NCBI GenBank assembly: GCA_000004695.1
Contig: CM000152.2
Span: forward strand, 3,264,001 to 3,328,000
DNA from: Dictyostelium discoideum
Taxonomy: Eukaryota
Direction: 5' to 3'
DNA length: 64,000 nt
Made by a program: the position numbers and the translations under genes
The notes under the pieces: model-generated
Seen by the model: the letters and a program-made list of their open reading frames with translations, nothing else
Databases searched by the model: none
Told to the model about the DNA's origin: nothing
In this document: in pieces, positions 4,192 through 42,111 of the stretch
Numbering within the stretch: the first letter of the stretch is position 1
Layout: each line of letters opens with the position of its first letter

Positions 4192-6862
4192 TTAAAAAGG
4201 AAAATATTTTACATAAAAGGCCACTTTTTGTATTTTCATTTGAATTGTTTTCATTAAATTTTTATCAGATCTCTTTTTAAACCAAATATATGTTGAGCCA
4301 GCCACAATAACTACAACAAATAAAATTGAGCAAATTATAATAGCAGCAATTTTAGAAGCACTCATTCCCGATTCATTATTATTTGAACAAATTGAATATG
4401 ATGATGATGAGATTTCTTTTGTATCTAAAAACATGGAAAAATCAGGATCAATAATAATTTGATTTTGGAAATAAGGAATATTAATACCAATAAATGCTTC
4501 ACGATAAGAAACATTATCATTTTTACTACCATCAATATTAGTATCAGATAAAGTTGATGAATCAAGTATTGAATTCTCTAATGTAATTATCTTTGTTGTG
4601 CTCTTTTAATAAATCTAGCATAAATTGAATGATTATCAATTTGAATTTTTAAATAATTTGAATTTTCTTCTTTTATAGTTTCACCAAATTCTTTAATTGA
4701 GCAAATGTTATTATTATTGTTATTGTCATCATCTGATGTTTTATTTATTATCATCATTGCTGAAATAATTAATTGAAGTCTATTTAATTTATTTTTAAAA
4801 TTATATTTTGATATTTCAATTGTGTATTTAATTGTTGATGGGTTCATTTTAATATCACTATTTGCAAATGAAATATTAGTTTTTCAAACCATTGTAATGT
4901 TATTGTTATATCAGTTGTTGAAATAATTGATTTAAAAAGTTTATTATTATTATTATATTTATTTGTTTGTTCGTCATTTATTTCAAATTCAATTGTAGGG
5001 TTTGAATCATTTTTTGAAGGTTGTGGAATTATTATAACTTTTGAAGAACAATCAATTCCAACCCATGGTGATTTACAAATACAACCATTATTTGTGCAAA
5101 CACCTTTGAGATATACCACCACATGGTTTATCATCTTTAAAACACTTTGATAATAGTAATGGAGTATATTGAAAACTTTTTAATAATGTAAATATTATAT
5201 CACCATCGTTTAATGTTAGATCATGGATTCCAAAACCTGCTACAATTTCACATTGAATTGTTGTTTCATTATATTGTATAATATTTATACATTGATTTGA
5301 ACCAATATCAATTGTTGAATTTTCAGATATATTACCAAAGAAACCATAAATAAATGTTAATCCACCATCAATAGTTGGGGATTTTACAGAATCAATATAT
5401 ATTTTAGAAATTTCACAATGGTCACCTTTGGTTTTAGAATCACATAAACATGAATTTGCTTCATATTCACCATGAGATGTACAATTACCAAAATCTTTTA
5501 AAATTGTGTATGATAGATCATTATCAGTGAATGTAACATTCTTTTCACCAAATTGAAGTATGTCAACTTGATAAACAATATTAAAATCATTTATTTGTTT
5601 TATATTATTACACTGTAATTCACCAATATGAATTGTACTTTCATTACTTATTGTTCCAAAGACACCATCCAATGATAATTTAATATTTTTGATTGTTGTT
5701 GAAAATTCTATTCTATCTATAACAATTAAAGATTTTTCACATAATTGACCACTAGTTTGAGTATCACATATACATTTATTTTGAGTTTTATTAAATGTTC
5801 CATGAGATGTACATGTTCCGAAATCATTTGAAAAATTAAATGACAAATCACCATCTGTATAACCAATAATTTGTCACCATATAAAGGTGTTGTTGTGCAT
5901 GAGACCAATATTGGACTGTGTTGCTTTATATTTTACAATCATAAGCGTTACCAATTTTAACAGTTGTTAACATTGGTGAAATGTATCCAAAGAATCCAAA
6001 AATTGATATATTATCTTCTTGAAAATATCTATAGTAATATACTTCCTTAATAATTATTTTTGAAGTTTCACACTGAGTACCATTGGTTTTTGAATCACAT
6101 AAACAACCACCACCATTATAATTACATACACCATGATTTGAACATCCATAATTACAATCACAAACTAATGAACTATAATATTCAATTTGGTATGTACATG
6201 TTTCAGCTTCTAATACTTCTGTTTTAGTAAATACTCCTCTATTTAGATCACAGATGAGGAAAAATTTCATTCTTCTTCTATTGGGTACGGGAGAGCCTGA
6301 ACAATCATTTCCACCTGTGGGGTCAAAATGATATGAACTGGTTATAATAGTCAATCCATTTTCAGGAAACTCTACAGAAAGTTATAACCAGTACACTTTC
6401 AATTTGGTAGCAATTTGATTGGTATGCACTGGAATATATATTTAGTGGCTTTCCCCTGGAAAACCATGACATTTATCAACTGTTACATTACAAAAATTAA
6501 ATTTATATAAACCATCACCACCATATGATAAATTTGAGGCAGCTGTCCAAGGATCAGAGGAATTTCTTAGTTTTTTATTTTTTATTTTTCATTTTTTATT
6601 TTTCATTTTTTATTTTTTTTTTTTATTTTTTTTTAGAATTGGAATTAATATTTTAATTTTTTCGATTCATAATTTTTAATATTTATTTATAGAATTGGAA
6701 TTCCAAAATTTGTATTATTATATTTTTTTACCTTTTTAATGGGGAGAGATCATATATGATTCCTTTATTTATATTATTATATAGACAGTTATTTTGACCA
6801 ATACATTTTATTATATTTAGGCTGGTTAAAAAAATAATAAAAATTAAATATTTATTTTTCAT
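4192..6862 (-). pseudogene. TIG/IPT + EGF-like repeat single-pass membrane glycoprotein gene (tgr 'Tiger'-family-like); probable pseudogene or mis-assembled because of multiple frame disruptions
   Basis: The minus strand starts with a signal peptide, MKNKYLIFIIFLTSLNIIKC, at 6862-6732, then a GTAAAA donor. Repeated units follow of the form FG.CTSHG....C.C(D)..T.G..CE.S + IPT-like ...GG.TFIYGFFGNIS.NSTI.IG...C. A TM helix IAAIIICSILFVVVIVAGSTYIWFKKR and a short tail lie at 4434-4192. The reading frame changes by +/-1 at about 5100, about 4845 and about 4605 with no GT..AG AT-rich intron available. Two further frame breaks at about 5850-5925 and about 6360-6450 are only bridged by atypical GC-richer 'introns'. 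Confidence 0.5.
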
Positions 6863-8305: not shown

Positions 8306-10972
8306 ACCATTGGGCCATCACACAGTTCAAATGATGAACCACCAATAATATCTAAAACCCAAAATGAAAACAATAAAACACATATTTATGACGAGAGTGT
8401 AGTCAACACCAACACCAACACCAACACCAACACCAACACCAACACCAACAACAACACCAACAACAACATCAACAACAATAATAATAATAATAATAGTAAA
8501 GAAAAAGAATTAAATGAACAATTAATAATATCAAAATCAGAAAATGATGAGTTAGAATTAATAATTTTAGAGAAAGAATATGAAATATCACAATTGAGAA
8601 TTGAAGATTTGGTTGAAAGATATGTTAAAAATAAATTACTATATAGCAATTGTAAGATAAAAAAAAAAAAAAAAAAAAGAATTATAATATAATATAATAT
8701 AATACGTATATATATTTATATTTATATTAATATTTATTATTTTATAATTTTATTATTTTATTATTAATTTTATAAAGGTATTAAAGATTTTGAAAATTAT
8801 GAATTAAAAGAATTATATGAAATTAATAGAAAAGAAGAAATTGAGAAAACCAATTCATATGTTGAAGAATTTTCAAAGAATGCAAATCAAATGATTAGAG
8901 ATGAGATTAATGAATATGATAAAAGAATTAAAGAGATTAAACAACAACATTTAGAAGAGATATTAAAATTACAAGAAACTTTAAAAAGATTTAAAAATGA
9001 TAAAGAGAATTTAGAGATTTCATTATTGAATTCCAATAATCAATTAATGGAGCTCGAGGATCAGTATCAGTTAAACACAAATCAGTTGAAGGAGACCTAC
9101 AGGAAGCAAATCGCTATTCTCACTAATTTAAATTCGAAATTAACTATTGATCTTGAGAGAATTCAGAATCAAAAAGATAAAGAATTAAAAGATAATTTAA
9201 ATTCCTTGTCTTTGGAATTGGTGGAGGCAGGCGAGAGAATTGAAAGATTTAAAACCATAGTTGAGAAATTGCAATCAGAGAAATCCAAAGACAGAGAGAC
9301 AATTAAGGAATTGACTGAATCAAATTCAAAGATTAATAATAGTTTGGAGAAGTTACATAGGGAGTTTGATAAACAGGTGAAGGTGAATAAAAGGAATTCC
9401 GAATTACAGACAAAGGTTGACATTTTGCAAGGTGAGAATGACAATCTACAAAATAAAATCCAAGATTTGAAAACATCGTTTGAAAAAGAGTCAAACAGAT
9501 TCCAAACTAAACTATTATCAAATGAGTCTACTAAAACCACACTTGTGTCTCAATTAAAGGATGAATTAAAACTTTCAATTAATGAATGTAAATCACAAAA
9601 GAAATTAAATGATCAATTGACTCTAGAGAATGAAAGATTGAAATCTGATAATCAAATTGAGAAATCATTACTTGATAATCAAATTAAACAACTCATTGAT
9701 GAATCAAAACTTTTAGGTAATCAATTTAATTCTTTAAAACAACAAAATGAAAAAATTATAAAAGAAAATGAAAAATCTCAATTAATCTTAAAAACAAATA
9801 AAGATAATTCAAATAATGAAATCATTCAATTAAAAGATCAAATTTCAAAATTATTAAAAACTTTACAAAATAATAATAATAATCAAAATAATAATCAAAA
9901 TAATGATAACTTAATAATTGATAAAACTGAACCAAAGAAACAAAGAAAAACTATCACCACAACTACAGAAACTTTAGAGAATTTAGGTGTAACATCTCGT
10001 TCTGGTAGAAAAAGGACACCAATTATATCTGATGAAGGTCAGGAAATTAAAACTGTGGTAAATAATTTTGTAAATAAAATGGAAGATGAAACAAAAGAAG
10101 AAGAAGAAGAAGAAGAAGAAGAAGAAGAACCAAAAGAAGAGATAAAACCAAAGTCAAGATCAAGAAAGAATGATAGTAGTGTTAAAAATGTAATTAACCA
10201 ATCATCTAGAAGGAAGGTAAAAAGTAAAGAATTGGAAGAAGAATTGGAAGAAGAAAAAGAGGAACAACTAGAAGAACCAATTAAAGAAGATATTCCAATC
10301 CAACCAACTAGACCTAATTCAAGATCAAGGAGAAATACTACCACCACCACCACTATCAATCAAGATACTCCAATCATCATCAATAATGTAAATAGTAAAA
10401 AAAGAACAAGAAAATCACATCAAGAAGAGGTAGAAGAACAAGAACAAGAACAAGAAGAACAAGAACAAGAAGAGCATGAACAATCATACATATTGGAGGG
10501 AGAACAACCAAAAAAAAGAAATAGAATTTCTAGAAAAGATAAAGAAGAACAAGAACAAACTGAAAGATTAGAGTTGGAAAGATTAGAAAAAGAAAGATTA
10601 GAAAAAGAAAAATTAAAAAAAGAAAAATTAAAAAAAGAGAAATTAGAAAAAGAAAAATTTGAAACTGAAAAATTGGAAACTGAAAAATTTGAAAAAGAAA
10701 AATTAGAAAATGAAAAATTAGAAAAAGAGAGAGAAAAAGTTAAACAAAGAGAAAAATTAGCAAAAGAGAGAGAAAAGGAGAGATTAAAAAAAGAAAAATT
10801 GAAAAAAGAAAAATTGGAAAAAGAAAAATTGGAAAAAGAAAAATTGGAAAAAGAAAAATTGGCAAAGGAAAAATTAGAAAAATTAGAAAAAGAAAAATTA
10901 GAAAAAGAGAGAGAAAAAGTTAAACAAAGAGAAAGAAATAACAGTAAATATCCAATACACAAAAATGTGTAA
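7724..10972 (+). CDS. Large coiled-coil protein with polyN/polyQ/polyT tracts and a C-terminal (KEKLE)n charged repeat; 2 exons: 7724-8651, 8778-10972
   Basis: ORF-track ORFs 7724-8692 and 8891-10972 are joined in-frame by a GTAAGA...TATAAAG intron (8652-8777). A heptad-like Q/E/K/L-rich sequence runs throughout. (CAA)32 at 8205-8300 encodes polyQ. No recognisable catalytic domain. Confidence 0.75.
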
Positions 10973-11254
10973 AACTTTAAATTTTCTTCTTTTACTAATA
11001 CTCTTCATTTCATATATAGATAAAGAAAATCTTAATGCAAATATATCAAATAATAGTAGTAATGGGAGTAAATTTGGGAAAATTCATCAATATCTTTTAA
11101 ATAAAGGAACCATTCCGAAACTATCAAATATGGTATGTAAAATAAAATAAAATAAAATAAATGAATTAATTTACTAATTTTTATTTTTAAAATAATTTTT
11201 ATTTTTTATTTTTTTTATAGAAAAAATAAAAATAAAATTTTTTTTTTTTTTTTT

Positions 11255-16487: not shown

Positions 16488-16946
16488 ATGATAAATCATA
16501 ATATTATTAGTTTTAAAAAATTTGAAGCTATTTTTGAACAACGTCCAGGTGGTTTAGAACTTAATATGCCAATAGAAATTGGTAGTAATAATGTTGATTT
16601 AACATCAAAACCATTCAATATTAAAGGTGGATCACATTACAAGGTTAAAATTGGTTATATGGCAAGTGAACCAATCACAGATTTAATTTGCCAAATTCAT
16701 ACATTTAGAAAATCCACACCATACGGAAGAGATACTCAAAAAGTTGGTGACATTTGTGCAAATACAAATGACTTGGAATTTGATTTCCCAAAATTTGGTT
16801 GGGAGCAAGCTTCAACTCAATCATCGTCAATGGGTGATTACACAATTAAAATGTATTTCAAAGGTAATGGAAATCAAGATCTTGCAACTTTCTTTTATTC
16901 TTTTAATGTTGCTCCAGATTGGGAAAATGCTTTACCAATAAATTAA
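16488..16946 (+). CDS. Rho GDP-dissociation inhibitor lacking the N-terminal regulatory arm (RhoGDI2-like), 152 aa, single exon
   Basis: Contains only the RhoGDI C-terminal immunoglobulin-like geranylgeranyl-binding domain: ..TSKPFNIKGGSHYKVKIGY...TFRKSTPYGRDTQKVGDI...DYTIKMYFKGNGNQDL... Compare the canonical ..KEGVEYRIKISF..YMVGSYGPR..YSIKSRFTDDD. It matches the published description of Dictyostelium RhoGDI2 (rdiB) as a short GDI. Confidence 0.7.
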   Translation: MINHNIISFKKFEAIFEQRPGGLELNMPIEIGSNNVDLTSKPFNIKGGSHYKVKIGYMASEPITDLICQIHTFRKSTPYGRDTQKVGDICANTNDLEFDFPKFGWEQASTQSSSMGDYTIKMYFKGNGNQDLATFFYSFNVAPDWENALPIN

Positions 16947-35478: not shown

Positions 35479-35809
35479 CTTTATTTAATTTGTAAATCAA
35501 AAATTATTATTTTTAAAATTTCATAAAAAAAACATAGTTTAGAATAATAAAAATAATAATAATTAAAATAATAATAATAATAAAAATAATAATAATATAT
35601 AGTTTATAAGTTTTATTTTTTCATTAAAATTATTTAAAAATATAAATTTGTTTTATTATTCCAAAAAAAAAAAAAAACTTATTTATATAAATATTTTATA
35701 ATATAAAAGACAGATTAATTAATTTGATTATAAAAATCAAATTAATATAATCAATTAAAACATCTCTATTCATATAAATTTTTGTGCATTATTTTATAAT
35801 TTTTAAAAA

Positions 35810-36006
35810 ATGACAAAAATGTTTCTTTCTTCAAAGAAAAAGAAATCAACAATTGAAACTTCAGATAAGAAGTATGGAGATGTAAAGTGTCTTAATAATA
35901 ATAAAATAAATAATACTGGTGTTGATATTGATCAACCGATGAAAAAAATAAATCATCAAAATAGTTTTAATAATATAGTTGAAATTCAACAACAACAACA
36001 ACAATT

Positions 36007-36053
<47 letters not shown>

Positions 36054-36499
36054 ATCCAGGTTACTCAGTTGATCAATCAATAGTTTTACAAAATAAAAAT
36101 TTTAATTCAAAAAGTCAGTTTGCTGGAGCATCTGAAATATATGGTAATAATAATATGGATAAGTCACCACCTGTTGCCAATAAACCATTTGAACAAAAAC
36201 ATCATAGTTTAAAAAAAATGTTTAAAAGAGTTTTAGATTTCAATAAAAAGAAAGATGTTGACCCTAAATTGGATGAATTTTTGAAATTGGTCGATTATCA
36301 TAGAGAATTTTTCAAGAGAAGTCCAGAAATTGATAGATATGTTATGACATTGGCATTTATATATATTAAGAAAGCTTTTCCTAATGATACTTTAATTTCA
36401 AATGAATTATTTTTTTATTCTTTATATTTAGCTTGGGTAAGTTTTTAATTTATTATTATTATTATTATTATTGTTAATATTATTATTTTTTATTAATTA

Positions 36500-36538
<39 letters not shown>

Positions 36539-36837
36539 TTTCTAAAAAATAGGAAACTGAAGAAGATTCTACATTGGGTTTAGAAAGTATTATTCATTAT
36601 ATAATTGGAAGTTATCCGTCATCAAAGAATAAAGATAAAAATCAAAGAAAACAAGAAATTATTGAATGGAGAATGAGATTAAGACAGTTCCATACTGGAA
36701 AAGATATTTTATGGAGAGCATTAGATTATAAAACAGTTGTCGATTTTCCACATATTCAAAAAACAATTAAAGCTTTTCCAAATCACGATATTTTAAAAAG
36801 AGAAAGAACTTCAACAACTTCAATTAAATTCTTTTAA
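35810..36837 (+). CDS. Speedy/RINGO-box (Spy1-like) putative CDK-activating cell-cycle regulator; 2 exons: 35810-36436, 36553-36837 (about 303 aa)
   Basis: After a polyQ N-terminus the sequence ..FLKLVDYHREFFKRSPEIDRYVMTLAFIYIKKAFPNDTLISNELFFYSLYLAW|ETEEDSTLGLESIIHYIIGSYPSSKN...EIIEWRMRLRQFHTGKDILWRALDYKTVVDFPHIQKTI matches the RINGO-box consensus NFF.ALYLA...EEDEE..KYEIF.WALG..W...F...R..LW.R..Y...V. Junction LYLAW|ETEEDS uses a GTAAGT donor and an ..aaaaatag acceptor. Confidence 0.65.
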
Positions 36838-37389
36838 AACATAATTTGATAATAATAATAATAATAATAATAATAATATAAAAAAATATATATATTTTTA
36901 TAATAAAGATTAAAAAAAAAAAAAAAAAAAAAAAAAAATAATAATAATGATAATAATAATAATAATACATAAACAATAATTAACAGAAACATAATATGGT
37001 AAAAATATTTGTATTTATAATAATAAAAATAATTCTTATTTATTAAAATGTATTTATTGTTTAGAAAAATTAAAAAATTGTAAATTATCAATTAAATTGA
37101 TTGTATAATTTCAAAACAAAAAAAAAATAGAAAAAAAAAAAATAATAAAAAAAATTTATATACATTCATTTGTATAAATAAAAAAAAAAAAGAAAAAAAG
37201 TTTTGTTTTCAAAAGGTTTTTTTTTTTTTTATTATTATTATTAAAGTTAAACTATTTTGAATTGGCGTAATATAATAAAAAATTATTTTTGTTTATTTAT
37301 TTATTTATTTTTTATTTATATAAATTAAATTTACAATAATGATGGTTTATAATAAACGTATTTACAATAGCATGTGATGCAGTTGTATA

Positions 37390-37560
37390 GAGTATTTATA
37401 AATGACTTTAATAATATGTCGAACCAAGAGAAAAGGAAATCCTTATTTGGCTTTGATGTTGTGAGGCCATAGTAACGCAGAAGTAACATATCTATCTATC
37501 TGAATCTGAATTGGTTACCAATTCAATTGAATCTTTAAGCTATATTTCCTAATTTTTTTC
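37390..37560 (+). repeat. Left arm of an imperfect inverted repeat of about 185 bp (about 90% identity); a sense-orientation duplicate of the last about 28 codons, stop codon and 3'UTR of the HAT-repeat gene, immediately followed by an A-rich tract
   Basis: Plus strand reads aat aga gta ttt ata aat gac ... gtg agg cca tag = NRVFINDFNNMSNQEKRKSLFGFDVVRP*, against the real gene end NRVFRNDFNNMSNQEKRKALFGSDVVKP* (39494-39410, minus). The similarity continues through about 90 nt of UTR (..atctatctatct..aattggttaccaattcaatt..) and an A(n) tract at 37567-37610. Confidence 0.8.
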
Positions 37561-37565
37561 TATAA

Positions 37566-37596
<31 letters not shown>

Positions 37597-37793
37597 AGAA
37601 AAAAATAAGTGTGATGAAAAGTAATTTTTATGGGTCGTTAAAAAAATATACTGAAGTTATTAATTATTAATATGAAATAACAACACATTGAAATAATAAA
37701 TTTAATAGTTTTTTTATTTAGAAAAAGCCATTGATGATTATTATTATTATTATTATTAATCAATAAATTCAAAAGGAATAAAATTAAAAGTGA

Positions 37794-37824
<31 letters not shown>

Positions 37825-38151
37825 AAATAAAGGTAATAATTTGGATAATATAGAAACAGATTTTAAAAGGTAATTAATTTTTTAATATAGAAAAACCTAT
37901 TTTAGATAATATAAAAACTACAACTTATTGTTTAAACAAAAAAGCTCACAATATTAATTTTTTTTTTATTTTTTTTTTTTTAATATTACAAAAAATTTAT
38001 AAAAGGTATCTTGATCTGGATCATCTGTGTCATCAGTATCATCAGTGTCATCTACCTTATCAACTTTATAATTTTCAAGATCTTGAGGACCAGTGCATGC
38101 TACAGTATAACGATGTGGACAAAGAATTTGACCATCAATATACTCATTATA

Positions 38152-38355
38152 CTAACCAAAAAAGTGACAGTACTTTCTTGATTCATTTCTTTCTTTAGAC
38201 TCATGAACGCATTCAATAATTGAACGATTGTAATCTAAATGTGAGAGCGGTTGTTCAGTTAGAAGTCTCCCTTCGTTCTTGTGCACGCCATCTACACCTC
38301 TTGAAGTATTTTGTAAATATAGTTTCTTTAATTTTCCAAATCTTGTATTAAACAT
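38152..38355 (-). CDS. Small ORF (67 aa) inside the inverted-repeat-bounded island; the same frame continues for a further about 58 codons after a single in-frame TAG (possible 57-nt GTTAGT..TAG intron, readthrough or pseudogene)
   Basis: MFNTRFGKLKKLYLQNTSRGVDGVHKNEGRLLTEQPLSHLDYNRSIIECVHESKERNESRKYCHFFG* then YNEYIDGQILCPHRYTVACTGPQDLENYKVDKVDDTDDTDDTDDPDQDTFYKFFVIL in the same frame. Local G+C is about 35% against under 20% in the flanks. No family recognised. Confidence 0.35.
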   Translation of the reverse strand: MFNTRFGKLKKLYLQNTSRGVDGVHKNEGRLLTEQPLSHLDYNRSIIECVHESKERNESRKYCHFFG

Positions 38356-39278
38356 AAAGCCTATTATTTAATTTAATTTCTTGTATGATATGTGCACATA
38401 TTACCTCACCCAATTACCAACCTTCAAACTAAAGTACAAGATTTTTGTGATGATATTCATTATGGAGAGGATAATAAGAGGTATTACAACACAATCAAAA
38501 ATGGGAAGCCATTTGTTTTTCCTTAAATTAAAAATAGTATTGTCATTAATCAACACATTGAAAATGTTTATGAATACCATTTATTGGATCATCAGTTGTA
38601 TTCTTGCAAGAATATTTCTCCAAAACTAGTAAAACTCTCCTACAGGAAAAAGTAGGACAGCCACTTTAAATAATTTTAAGTTTGTACAGGCAGGAGACAT
38701 TTTATTTACTAATGTATGCCCCATTATTCATTCTTATGAAAATAATTATCAAGAGCCACAATCAGAAGCTCAAAATTTAGTCTTCTTTTCAATTTTGAAT
38801 ATTCTATAAGCAAATCCATCTGTAATCATTATTTCAGGTTCAATATCTTTATATCATTTCAAAGAAGCTCTATATAAAATCGAAAATATCCAGTGGGACA
38901 ATGATTCAATCACTATCAATTGTAAGAAAATTATGTAGTTAAAGATTAAACACCTATGTATGCAAGAATCTATAAATCAATTAGATAATAAGCTAAAAAT
39001 ATTTTTTCAATTATACTAATAGTTTATTTAAAAAATTATATTATTTTTGTTAAATCATAATAATAATAATAATAATAATAATAATATTGAAAAGTTGATA
39101 TTTTAAAAAAAATAATTGTATTTAAAAAATTAAAACTCATAAATATGCCTTTTATTTCTTCTGAAGGATAAACCAATTGGTTAATCAGTATTAAAAAAAA
39201 AAAAAAAAAAAGATAATAATATTAATAACTTAAATATATTTTTTTAGCAACTCACGAAAATTACTTTTCATCACACTT

Positions 39279-39309
<31 letters not shown>

Positions 39310-39310
<1 letters not shown>

Positions 39311-39495
39311 TTTATTGAAAAATATTAGGAAATATAACTAACTTAAAGATCTAATTGAATTGGTAACCAATTCAAATTAAGATAGATAGATATGTTACTT
39401 CTGAGGTTACTATGGCTTCACAACATCAGAGCCAAAGAGGGCTTTCCTTTTCTCTTGGTTCGACATATTATTAAAGTCATTTCTAAATACTCTAT
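39310..39495 (-). repeat. Right arm of the roughly 185-bp inverted repeat (the genuine 3' end, stop codon and 3'UTR of the HAT-repeat gene, plus an adjoining poly-T tract at 39270-39314)
   Basis: The reverse complement aligns with 37390-37560 with about 15 mismatches and one 4-nt indel. Confidence 0.8.
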
Positions 39496-39891
39496 TCAAT
39501 GATAAAACACCATCTGAACCAACCCAACATGAACCATATTCAGGTTTTTTTTCTTCAAGATATTGTTCTTTTGGTTGTGTCATTTCGAGTAATAATTTTT
39601 TAGCATTTCTCAATACTTGTCTACTGCTATCTAAAACGCAAACTGTACAATGAAGCCACATAAATCCATAATTTGGATCAGCATTGATACAAAGTTGTTC
39701 CAATTTTGAAATATCACAATTTGGACCTTTCTCCATAATCTCTAAACGAAGTAGTTCAATAAATGAATCTCCAAATTGTGGTGTAAATTGAATTGCAAAT
39801 TCTAAAAATCTTCTGGCTTCTCTTAGTTCATTATTATTTAATGCAATTCTAGCGCCTTCACACCAAACCTCACCAGATTTTGGTACCTAAT

Positions 39892-39934
<43 letters not shown>

Positions 39935-42111
39935 ATGTTAATTCATTTATATATTTTATTATAAATTTGATTTTTTTTAAAACAATGGTGGTTGATATTG
40001 TTATATTATTTTTAAACTTACAAATTGTAAAGCTTTCTTAAAAACATTTAATTGTGATTTAACACCTTTTAATTGATTTAATTGAATAAGAGCAGCCCAT
40101 AGTCTACCAGCACCACTATGAATTTTTAAAGATTCTTTTGCTTCTTTAATTGCTGCTTCATAATTGTTTGCTCTCATTTCAAGTAATACACTTTCTAAAA
40201 ATACTTTCCAATCTAAACGTGCTTCTACATGAGCCATCTTTAAAATTCTACGTGATTTATTAATGTTACCTGCATATTCCTCTAATCTTGAATATTCCAA
40301 TAATACCAATGATCTTAATTTGGATGGTACCTCCTCTAGAGCACGGAAAACCAATTTTCTAGCTATACAAATATTATCAGCATTTAATTCTGTTCTGCTA
40401 CCACCTAACCAAACTTTCCATAATAAATTCTCTGGACAAAGCTCGACACTCTTTACATAGGCAGCTCTAGAGAGTGTTAAATTTTTTGAACGTTCTTCAA
40501 TTTGAGCTGCTTCGAAATAGATTTTCCAAGTTACTTCACGTGATACAGCTTGTCTAGCACGTTCAACGGTATTACGAGTTGATTGAAGGAAACCATGACT
40601 AGTTTTCTCATATAGACGTAATGCACTAAACCAAAGTGGACCATATTTTGGATCTTCAAATAAACCTTTCTCTACAATGTTAATGGCACGTTCATACTCT
40701 TCACATCTCTCTTCAAGTTTATAAGCTTCTTGATAGATTGGACCATACCAAGGTACATGTTTCATGAGATATTTAAAGATCTTTCTAGCAACATCAATAT
40801 TACCAGCACGAGCCTCCAATAAACCACCCTCCATTACAGCTCTCCAAGTTTTATAGATTGATTGATCACGTAGTTGAGAAAGTAATGCTCTTGCTCCCTC
40901 TAAATTATCCATTTTCTCTTCATGACGAATACCTTTAATCAATAAACTCTCATTGAATGGACAATGTTTAAGACCCAATTGAAGTATCTTTTGACATTTC
41001 TCAAGACGACCATAATCTTCCTCCATTTTAGCATACTCTAACCAACCTTGACTAATATAGGGTTGAGTACTTGTAACCTTTCTATAGAATTTACGAGCCA
41101 ACTTAAGGTTATTTTGACGGTTAGCCAAATCTGCCAATTCTAAATAAACTCTCCAATGAACTTTTTCTGGTAAAACACTTAATGATTGAAAAGCAAATTC
41201 CATTGCAATCTCTAATCCTTCTTTTTCTTTTAATTTAAATTGTTTAATAAAGTGTTTATATTGTTGTTTAGAAACTGGACTCTCTACCAATTCACCTCTT
41301 TTAGATTCATTTGGTGGTGGTTTAGAATGATTAACTGTTGTTAATAACTCTTCATTATCTGAATCATTATTAATAATATTAATATTTGTTTGATTATTAA
41401 TTGTTGTAACATTATTTGTATTATTATTATGTTGTTGTTGTTGTCTTTGATTTGAAGTTGGTGGTTGTTGTTGTTGTGGTTGTTGTGATTGTTGTAGAAG
41501 AGGTGATTGAGTTGTTGATGTTTGTACATTTTGTTGTTGTTGTTGTTGTTGTTGTGTAGATTGTTGAGTTTGATTTTGTTTTTGATGTTGATTTTTGTGA
41601 TTTGGATGTGACTGATTATGGTGTTGGTTATGATGTTGGTTATGTTGATTATGTTGATGTTGGCCATGATGTTGGCTATGTTGATTGTGTTGATGTTGGC
41701 CATGGTGTTGATTATGTTGATGTTGACCATGATGTTGATTGTGTTGATGTTGACCATGGTGTTGATTATGTTGATGTTGACCATGGTGTTGCATTCANNN
41801 NNNNNNNNNNNNNNNNNNNNNNNNNNNNNNNNNNNNNNNNNNNNNNNNNNNNNNNNNNNNNNNNNNNNNNNNNNNNNNNNNNNNNNNNNNNNNNNNNGTG
41901 GTGATTGTTGTTGGTTATTGTTTAAAATCGGTTGATAGTAATACTTTGGATAGTGTTGTTGATTTTGTTGTTGATTTTGTTGTTGATTCTGTTGTTGGTT
42001 TTGTTGTTGATTTTGTTGTTGCTGTTGCTGTTGCTGTTGTTGCTGTTGCTGTTGCTGTTGCTGTTGTATTTGCATTTGCATTTGTAACATTTGTTGGTGT
42101 TGTAAGAGGCT

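Follow-up and report, generated by a model that had tools for sequence, protein, structure and literature searches.

How a block of protein-like debris came to lie between two long inverted repeats is the question raised by a spacer between two convergent genes of Dictyostelium discoideum AX4. The locus lies in a 64,000-nucleotide stretch of contig CM000152.2 (chromosome 3, assembly GCA_000004695.1, positions 3,264,001 to 3,328,000 of the forward strand). We call this stretch the window, and its own coordinates are used throughout. The spacer is bounded by a Spy1-like gene on the plus strand and by the HAT/TPR-repeat gene DDB_G0280363 on the minus strand. An earlier reading of the letters alone, the original prediction, described an island here that was richer in guanine plus cytosine (GC) and was bracketed by inverted repeats, and it proposed several possible origins. 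Our answer is that the island is probably a neutral rearrangement scar of the AX4 lineage.

The inverted repeat was examined by comparing the window with itself. blastn aligned 37383-37673 (plus strand) with 39499-39213 (minus strand) at 87.2% identity over 296 columns (E 8e-99), and this pair was the top-scoring non-self match of the 64-kb window. The outer edge of the repeat is sharp, with 57% mismatch immediately outside the arms compared to 9.6% within them. An independent second D. discoideum assembly (GCA_054883475.1, here L001) carries the whole structure, and 36800-40100 is identical there except for the lengths of three homopolymer tracts. Therefore, the structure is not an assembly artefact. 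These results bear out the long inverted repeat that was first described, and also its identity of about 90%, since 27 of 280 aligned positions differ (p = 0.096 at aligned sites). Its arms had been put at about 185 bp, which is too short. Each is about 290 bp long and reaches about 65 bp (37608-37670) past an A-tract. The two arms are:

37383-37673, plus strand: left arm, an inverted non-functional duplicate of the right arm (87% with gaps)
39213-39499, minus strand: right arm, native 3' end of DDB_G0280363 (HAT/TPR-repeat gene)

By our reading of the open reading frame (ORF) and its splice sites, the right arm holds the last 29 codons and the stop (39499->39410) of the last exon of DDB_G0280363 (39884->39410). 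The 3' untranslated region (UTR) that follows contains the palindrome GAATTGGTTACCAATTC (39357-39373), AATAAA, a tract of T on the plus strand (~39275-39316), and about 60 bp further. The arm had been correctly recognized as the C-terminal codons, stop, and 3' flank of this gene, with a codon count of about 28 instead of 29. The protein P0004 is 100% identical to the HAT/TPR protein of the window. Its C-terminal peptide, LSLNRVFRNDFN.M.N.E.RK..FGSD.VKP, is kept in other dictyostelids; ...LSLNRVFRNDFNNMSNQEKRKALFGSDVVKP is kept in Synstelium and Tieghemostelium, and partly much farther afield (...ERRKAIFGSDQLKP).

Some features of this gene lie outside the arm. The AX4 assembly has a gap of about 100 N at window 41796-41897, on the minus strand between the HAT/TPR ORF and an upstream poly-Q ORF, where L001 has 644 bp. 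The HAT gene is one long gene of 1444-1654 aa in all other annotations, and the AX4 model DDB_G0280363 has 749 aa. This model is probably just the C-terminal part of a larger gene.

Orthologous loci were reached through the reconstructed E1 dehydrogenase (900 aa) encoded nearby. Its 90% cluster led to nine other Dictyostelium assemblies, and seven loci were compared. The order G-alpha, E1 dehydrogenase, Spy1-like (plus strand), HAT (minus strand) is kept in all seven. The spacer, measured between the stop codons of the Spy1-like and HAT genes, has the following lengths:

D. citrinum (L007): 342 bp
D. firmibasis (L010): 373 bp
D. dimigraforme (L011): 432 bp
D. cf. discoideum ACTFIZ (L008): 1004 bp
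D. discoideum ACTFIR (L005): 1183 bp
D. discoideum ACTFIW (L006): 1246 bp
D. cf. discoideum ACTFIY (L009): 2276 bp
AX4 window: 2569 bp

Neither blastn nor tblastn found a second copy of the HAT tail in the seven related loci, nor the two coding relics of the island interior, a minus-strand ORF and a plus-strand pseudogene. The orthologous HAT tail is present as one copy at the same position in L005-L009. At the T. lacteum HAT locus the downstream synteny is absent. Because seven related genomes with the same gene order have neither the left arm nor the relics, the comparison indicates that the island is a derived feature of the AX4 lineage. This also differs from an outcome raised with the original prediction, in which the island and both arms would have been collinear in orthologous loci. 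The identity of the E1 protein to that of AX4 is 99.1-99.3% in ACTFIR and ACTFIW, 98.6% in ACTFIY, 98.0% in ACTFIZ, and 94.9% in D. citrinum. ACTFIR and ACTFIW are labelled D. discoideum, with a non-coding difference from AX4 of about 10% (window 35800-40100) and an E1 difference of 0.7-0.9%; they may be a cryptic sister lineage.

The left arm repeats the right arm part by part, with 29 codons, a stop, the UTR, the A-tract, and about 65 bp further. It can still be read to its stop as ...YRVFINDFNNMSNQEKRKSLFGFDVVRP*, as had been noted, except that the first residue is Y and not N. Its replacements R->I, S->F, and K->R fall at residues that are conserved in orthologues. Because of this, the alignment identifies the left arm as a derived, unconstrained copy and the right arm as the original. 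When both arms were aligned with L005, L006, and L009, 16 substitutions were specific to the left arm and nine to the right. The divergence between the arms was much alike in their several parts, with 0.078 in the 29 codons, 0.089 in the 3' UTR, 0.108 in the A-tract, and 0.127 in the 63 bp past it, and no sign of gene conversion between the arms was found. At 15 sites the arms agree with each other against L005 and L006, and about four of these are derived in AX4, since L009 has the L005/L006 state. The derived substitutions common to both arms place the duplication after the split from the ACTFIR/ACTFIW lineage but far in the past, about three quarters of the way back.

The sequence past the A-tract tells how the copy was made. 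Unique sequence at this place, AAGTGTGATGAAAAGTAATTTT..., belongs to the duplicated segment (87% over 63 aligned sites). The A-tract itself is encoded in the DNA of the parent gene's 3' flank. L005, L006, L008, and L009 also have it at their one orthologous site, and in L005, L006, and L009 it is followed by the same unique sequence. With homology on both sides of an A-tract that is genomic in relatives, the left arm is therefore a DNA-level copy.

Parts of the ancestral spacer can still be recognized around the left arm and beside the right one. No strand is assigned to them:

37255-37317: remnant of the ancestral spacer (S), left of the left arm; aligns with L006 17346-17372 and 17423-17472, inverted in L005
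37863-37929: remnant of the ancestral spacer (S), inside the island; 88% to L006 17644-17709 (plus) and L005 17482-17417 (minus)
39135-39212: ancestral spacer that abuts the right arm, beside the 3' flank of HAT; aligns with L006 17842-17903 and L005 17796-17837

The match at 37863-37929 has a z of about 10-11 against shuffles. Since the remnants flanking the left arm on both sides are collinear and co-oriented with L006, the alignments indicate that the interior is not inverted and that the arm and the block of relics are insertions. Compared to an L006-like ancestor, the first AX4 insertion comprises the inverted arm and extra AT-rich sequence, with about 100-170 bp of spacer lost. The second is a 1.05-kb relic block about 300 bp to the right of the arm. 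The ends of the left arm, 37383 and 37673, show no evident direct repeats, though short ones would be uninformative in such AT-rich flanks.

This spacer is unstable in general and has been rearranged in other lineages too. A segment of about 500 bp is inverted between ACTFIR and ACTFIW at 93% identity (L005 17297-17804 versus L006 17829-17332), with A/T runs at its bounds. This micro-inversion was probably derived in ACTFIR, because AX4 has the orientation of ACTFIW. At the same spot of the spacer, ACTFIY has gained about 1.56 kb of its own (L009:17331-18888). This insertion shows no relation to the AX4 island and is mostly AT-rich; its middle part has 17-24% GC. Short motifs recur at several of these places. 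The perfect 17-nt palindrome GAATTGGTTACCAATTC of the HAT 3' UTR has its left-arm copy at 37508-37524. Akin to it are CCAATTGG or GAATTGG motifs, which adjoin the right arm (39173-39180), occur at ~37257-37267, and in AX4, L005, and L006 also mark where the invertible spacer segment ends, possibly by chance. The idea that CCAATTGG / GAATTGGT palindromes mark rearrangement edges was dropped, since their enrichment stems largely from the two arm copies.

The interior of the island had been described as GC-richer than its surroundings. In 200-bp windows this holds for the central ~1 kb only, with 25-36% GC in 38000-38960; 37673-38000 and 38960-39213 have 11-16%, as ordinary spacer does. The neighboring HAT exons have 30-38% GC. 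The central part therefore is not compositionally unusual, and it has ordinary Dictyostelium exon composition. It contains two reading frames that lie head to head and point outwards from a junction at 38358/38389:

37969-38358, minus strand: relic ORF, partly annotated as DDB_G0280361; 130 codons, in-frame TAG at 38152-38154, acidic C-terminal tail
38389-39010, plus strand: 5'-truncated pseudogene of the P0003/P0125 family; stops at 38524-38526, 38807-38809, and 38936-38938, +1 frameshift near 38631-38640

All of these lesions, the three stops and the frameshift of the pseudogene and the stop of the minus-strand ORF, recur in L001. It was right that there is no clean gene between the arms, though AX4 annotates a 76-aa hypothetical protein, DDB_G0280361, there.

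The only database matches of the minus-strand ORF were gene models of this same locus, AX4 DDB_G0280361 (76 aa) and ACTFIT_010988 (115 aa). Codon usage gave 0.25 bit/codon, in the frame of this ORF only, compared to 0.36 for the last HAT exon and 0.27 for the exon of the left neighbor. No N-terminal or upstream continuation was found in translation, and no Pfam or PHROGs family was found for it. The ACTFIT model P0001 (L001:10001-10864, equal to window ~38371-37508) uses a 66-nt "intron" to remove the in-frame TAG and ends with an exon (..LKDSIELVTNSDSDR) borrowed from left-arm sequence on the minus strand. It resembles an ab initio artefact. In the AX4 model P0002, antisense pseudogene sequence supplies a short additional exon upstream (MNNGAYIS).

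Further searches of the interior were negative. Its ORFs matched no annotated D. discoideum proteins beyond the models of this locus and contained no reverse transcriptase, integrase, or transposase Pfam domain. No capsid was found in the island. TRE elements sit near tRNA genes; the scans found no tRNA genes in the window and no Rfam match in the region. By protein matches, domains, and the tRNA scan, membership in the known Dictyostelium repeats (DIRS, Skipper, DGLT-A, TRE5/TRE3, Tdd, DDT, thug) is not supported. A larger, decayed palindrome was also considered. When the right inner half was reverse-complemented and compared with the left one, as DNA and as six-frame protein, there were low-complexity matches only, equally on both strands, and the two halves are therefore no mirror images.

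The plus-strand pseudogene belongs to a small orphan family. HMMER, run exhaustively against 1.84 billion representatives, found only two relatives: P0003, a 227-aa model from D. cf. discoideum ACTFIY (L002), and P0125, a 378-aa model from D. cf. discoideum ACTFIZ (L004). In tblastn, these proteins matched the window at 38-50% identity (E 2e-32 and 1e-29). About 100 N-terminal codons common to both (LIPQLI..YN.LIY.NY...) are absent from the window, and the pseudogene is therefore 5'-truncated. A second match of the family at window 16659-16793 lies within an unrelated 152-aa ORF and was put down to chance, as was a sub-threshold match to zf-CCCH_3 (E 0.04) in scans of the interior ORFs, P0003, and P0125. 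The family has no relatives in Pfam, PHROGs, PDB sequences, or IMG/VR, and the AlphaFold model of P0003 is poor, with a predicted local distance difference test (pLDDT) score of 33. The motif order NSPT...FTNVCPI...SG...PHL and the predicted beta-alpha-beta pattern are reminiscent of uracil-DNA glycosylases (UDGs), and the family may be UDG-like; searches of Pfam, PDB sequence profiles, and PHROGs were negative for this.

P0003 and P0125 are 57% identical, while the E1 dehydrogenases of the two genomes are 98% identical. They lie at non-syntenic loci, and the DNA homology between L002 and L004 is confined to the ORF. The family is either very fast-evolving or made up of paralogues that relocate or are differentially lost. 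In L002 (2600-11130 of JBTAPH010000031.1, GCA_054859205.1), P0003, whose ORF is probably at 10177-11124, adjoins virus- or mobile-element-like ORFs. Among them are an AEP primase (PF23162, 22.4 bits with a cut-off of 23), a YqaJ recombinase (E 7e-37), a primase-helicase-like P-loop protein with weak PHROGs matches to DNA primase, and a small P-loop NTPase. This run of ORFs may be an integrated element. In L004 (GCA_054859235.1), about 5 kb upstream of P0125, positions 5000-5422 carry a fragment of a piggyBac-like transposase (PF13843, E 5e-5). In neither L002 nor L004 is the family gene flanked by terminal repeats; there are only A/T runs.

The age of the relics can be compared with that of the left arm. 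Neutral decay simulated at the left-arm rate of 5.5% gave 1.7 expected stops in the minus-strand ORF and 2.6 in the pseudogene, with one and three observed. On these numbers, the three pieces may have lost function at about the same time, or never had any here, which does not prove a single event.

Taken together, these results make it probable that the island is a neutral scar of break repair in the convergent spacer. On the AX4 branch, after the split of the nearest sampled sister, breaks in the AT-rich spacer would have been repaired by copying or capturing DNA. The ~290-bp HAT 3' end would have been copied in inverted orientation from a template a few hundred bp away, giving the left arm. 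About 300 bp further to the right, the 1.05-kb block would have been inserted with two 5'-truncated gene fragments head to head: the orphan ORF, and part of a P0003-family gene that came from another site in the genome. Neither retrotranscription nor self-driven transposition would have taken place, and the HAT gene itself is unaltered. The inserted pieces would have been non-functional from the start and have decayed neutrally afterwards. The repair may have been by templated insertion, template switching, or capture of fragments at a double-strand break, in one event or in two separate ones. An inverted local copy with ectopic fragments and an unflipped interior fits break repair and contradicts a plain staggered-break inversion. 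Of the origins first proposed, an inverted segmental duplication with capture has held up, in essence, without its claim of compositionally foreign DNA: the GC content of the captured DNA and the codon usage of the minus-strand ORF are host-like.

Fork stalling and template switching (FoSTeS) and microhomology-mediated break-induced replication (MMBIR) are processes of this kind. Such template switching or break repair yields templated insertions and complex rearrangements, and microhomology at the junctions is a signature of template switching. The AX4 locus resembles their products in its short segments, one local and inverted and two non-local, their mixed orientations, the small interval, and the apparent loss of some spacer. 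It differs in that donors of the AX4 relics were not found and in that the events are old (~5% divergence per copy) and may be separate.

Several points weigh against a neutral repair scar. Neither donor locus of the two interior fragments was found. The sampled carriers of the island represent one lineage only, AX4 and a near-identical assembly. The AT-rich flanks preclude base-exact insertion boundaries or the recognition of a target-site duplication. Also, the P0003 family occurs at different loci in three genomes, once beside virus-like replication genes, and a mobile carrier may therefore have brought in the interior block. Finally, that the island has no function is something that we infer.

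The point about the P0003 family bears on a different origin, in which a remnant of a mobile or virus-like element brought the P0003-family gene and perhaps the minus-strand ORF, and the arm arose at integration or excision, as in a foldback, Pack-MULE-like, or endogenous viral element. The patchiness of the family (two intact members in the 1.84 billion representatives), the divergence of these members at non-syntenic loci against nearly identical E1 proteins, the AEP primase, YqaJ recombinase, and primase-helicase-like ORF in L002, and the piggyBac-like fragment 5 kb away in L004 all speak for such an element. We still consider it unlikely. The arms are host-gene sequence with one arm in situ, the family gene lacks terminal repeats in both L002 and L004, and the homology of those loci is limited to the ORF. 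The island is single-copy within the 64-kb window, with no transposase, integrase, or capsid and no IMG/VR relatives, and the codon usage of its minus-strand ORF is that of the host. Pack-MULE and foldback elements have long terminal inverted repeats around captured gene fragments. The ~290-bp inverted repeats of AX4 likewise enclose host-like gene fragments, but they are the tail of a resident gene that is conserved, and no target-site duplication, transposase domain, or multi-copy protein family was found. The foldback or DNA-transposon remnant of the original prediction is thus not supported.

A staggered-break micro-inversion is quite unlikely as well. Here, with one staggered break across the HAT 3' end and another break in the spacer, about 1.5 kb between them would have been inverted, and fill-in of the overhangs would have left inverted duplicates at both ends, as in the staggered-break model for inversion breakpoints (Ranz et al. 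2007, PMC1885836). The resemblance is close: an ancestrally unique gene end was duplicated in inverted orientation, the copies are ~88% identical, the extra, non-functional copy is decaying, only one breakpoint is duplicated, and no repetitive element is involved. Features of this kind were reported for 12 inversions in that study, and the AX4 spacer is one that did micro-invert, by ~500 bp between L005 and L006. What decides against it is the spacer itself. The remnants at 37255-37317 (outside) and 37863-37929 (inside) both keep the order and orientation of L006, when the inner piece alone should have flipped. The L006 orientation is that of AX4 and hence probably ancestral. In contrast to the inversions of Ranz et al., just 1.5 kb separates the copies here, this sequence is not inverted, and it holds inserted non-local gene fragments, a 1-kb block that an inversion leaves unexplained.

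We give little credence to two further, independent proposals. In one, the left arm became an RNA interference (RNAi) or antisense regulator of the HAT/TPR gene in the AX4 lineage. In the other, the pseudogene is a trace left by a mobile or virus-like element, so far undescribed, of the D. discoideum complex, with the fast-evolving P0003-family gene alongside the AEP primase, YqaJ, and helicase genes of L002.

Also decidedly unlikely is a functional antisense or hairpin locus, in which a minus-strand DDB_G0280361 transcript or HAT read-through runs across the left arm and pairs with the 3' end of the HAT mRNA for RNAi or regulation. Hairpin-RNA and proto-microRNA loci born by inverted duplication of the target gene are known, with plant and Drosophila examples. 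Like them, AX4 has an inverted partial duplicate near the gene and a predicted 264 bp of double-stranded RNA (dsRNA) with its mRNA: 264 of 287 possible pairs between a minus-strand RNA through the left arm and the tail of the HAT transcript, and a free-energy difference (ddG) of ~-238 kcal/mol. The structure is long-lived, and the ACTFIT gene model of the minus-strand ORF reaches into the left arm. However, this model skips the stop through the implausible 66-nt "intron" and looks ab initio. The arms diverge at an approximately neutral rate, the left one faster, with no sign of conservation or gene conversion, and all seven relatives do without the structure. There was no Rfam match, and neither gene id (DDB_G0280361, DDB_G0280363) is mentioned in any paper that we found. 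A general search of the literature on Dictyostelium small RNAs and inverted duplications yielded nothing specific.

It is very unlikely that the structure is ancestral and was lost, once or independently, in the other lineages instead of being gained in AX4. This would suit the pairwise distances among the left arm, the right arm, and L005, which are near star-like (0.096, 0.117, and 0.094), and four sites at which the left arm sides with L005 and L006. These conflicting sites depend on a poorly aligned, AT-rich outgroup. On the other side stand the ~4 derived AX4 substitutions present in both arms and the absence of the structure from seven genomes, which include three outgroup species with spacers of 340-430 bp.

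Retro-copying of a polyadenylated 3' part of the HAT mRNA, the first of the origins originally proposed, can be dismissed almost completely, since the likeness of the arm to a processed pseudogene (a 3'-terminal gene fragment, then an A-rich tract) is superficial: the A-tract lies within the duplicated segment, the parent locus and relatives have it in their DNA, homology continues for ~65 bp past it, the copy begins mid-exon, and no direct repeats are evident in the AT-rich flanks, nor any tRNA genes or retroelement ORFs nearby.

Rearrangement scars of this type are already known, and the AX4 locus is a fresh instance. For annotation, DDB_G0280361 is most likely a relic ORF, and the "foreign-looking" island is ordinary Dictyostelium coding debris. 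No long-standing question is opened by the locus; what interest is left lies mainly in the predicted dsRNA potential against a conserved gene and in the odd, possibly mobile orphan family of the pseudogene. If the antisense proposal were true, the left arm, with its ~260-bp duplex against the HAT/TPR mRNA, would be a protist silencing locus born from an inverted duplication of its target. For genome evolution, the locus offers a dated and polarized case from the gene-dense genome of a protist, in which an AT-rich convergent spacer went from ~350 bp to 2.6 kb. The spacer would have grown through inverted local duplication and gene-fragment capture, and its sister lineages were hit independently, by a micro-inversion in one and by another insertion in a second.

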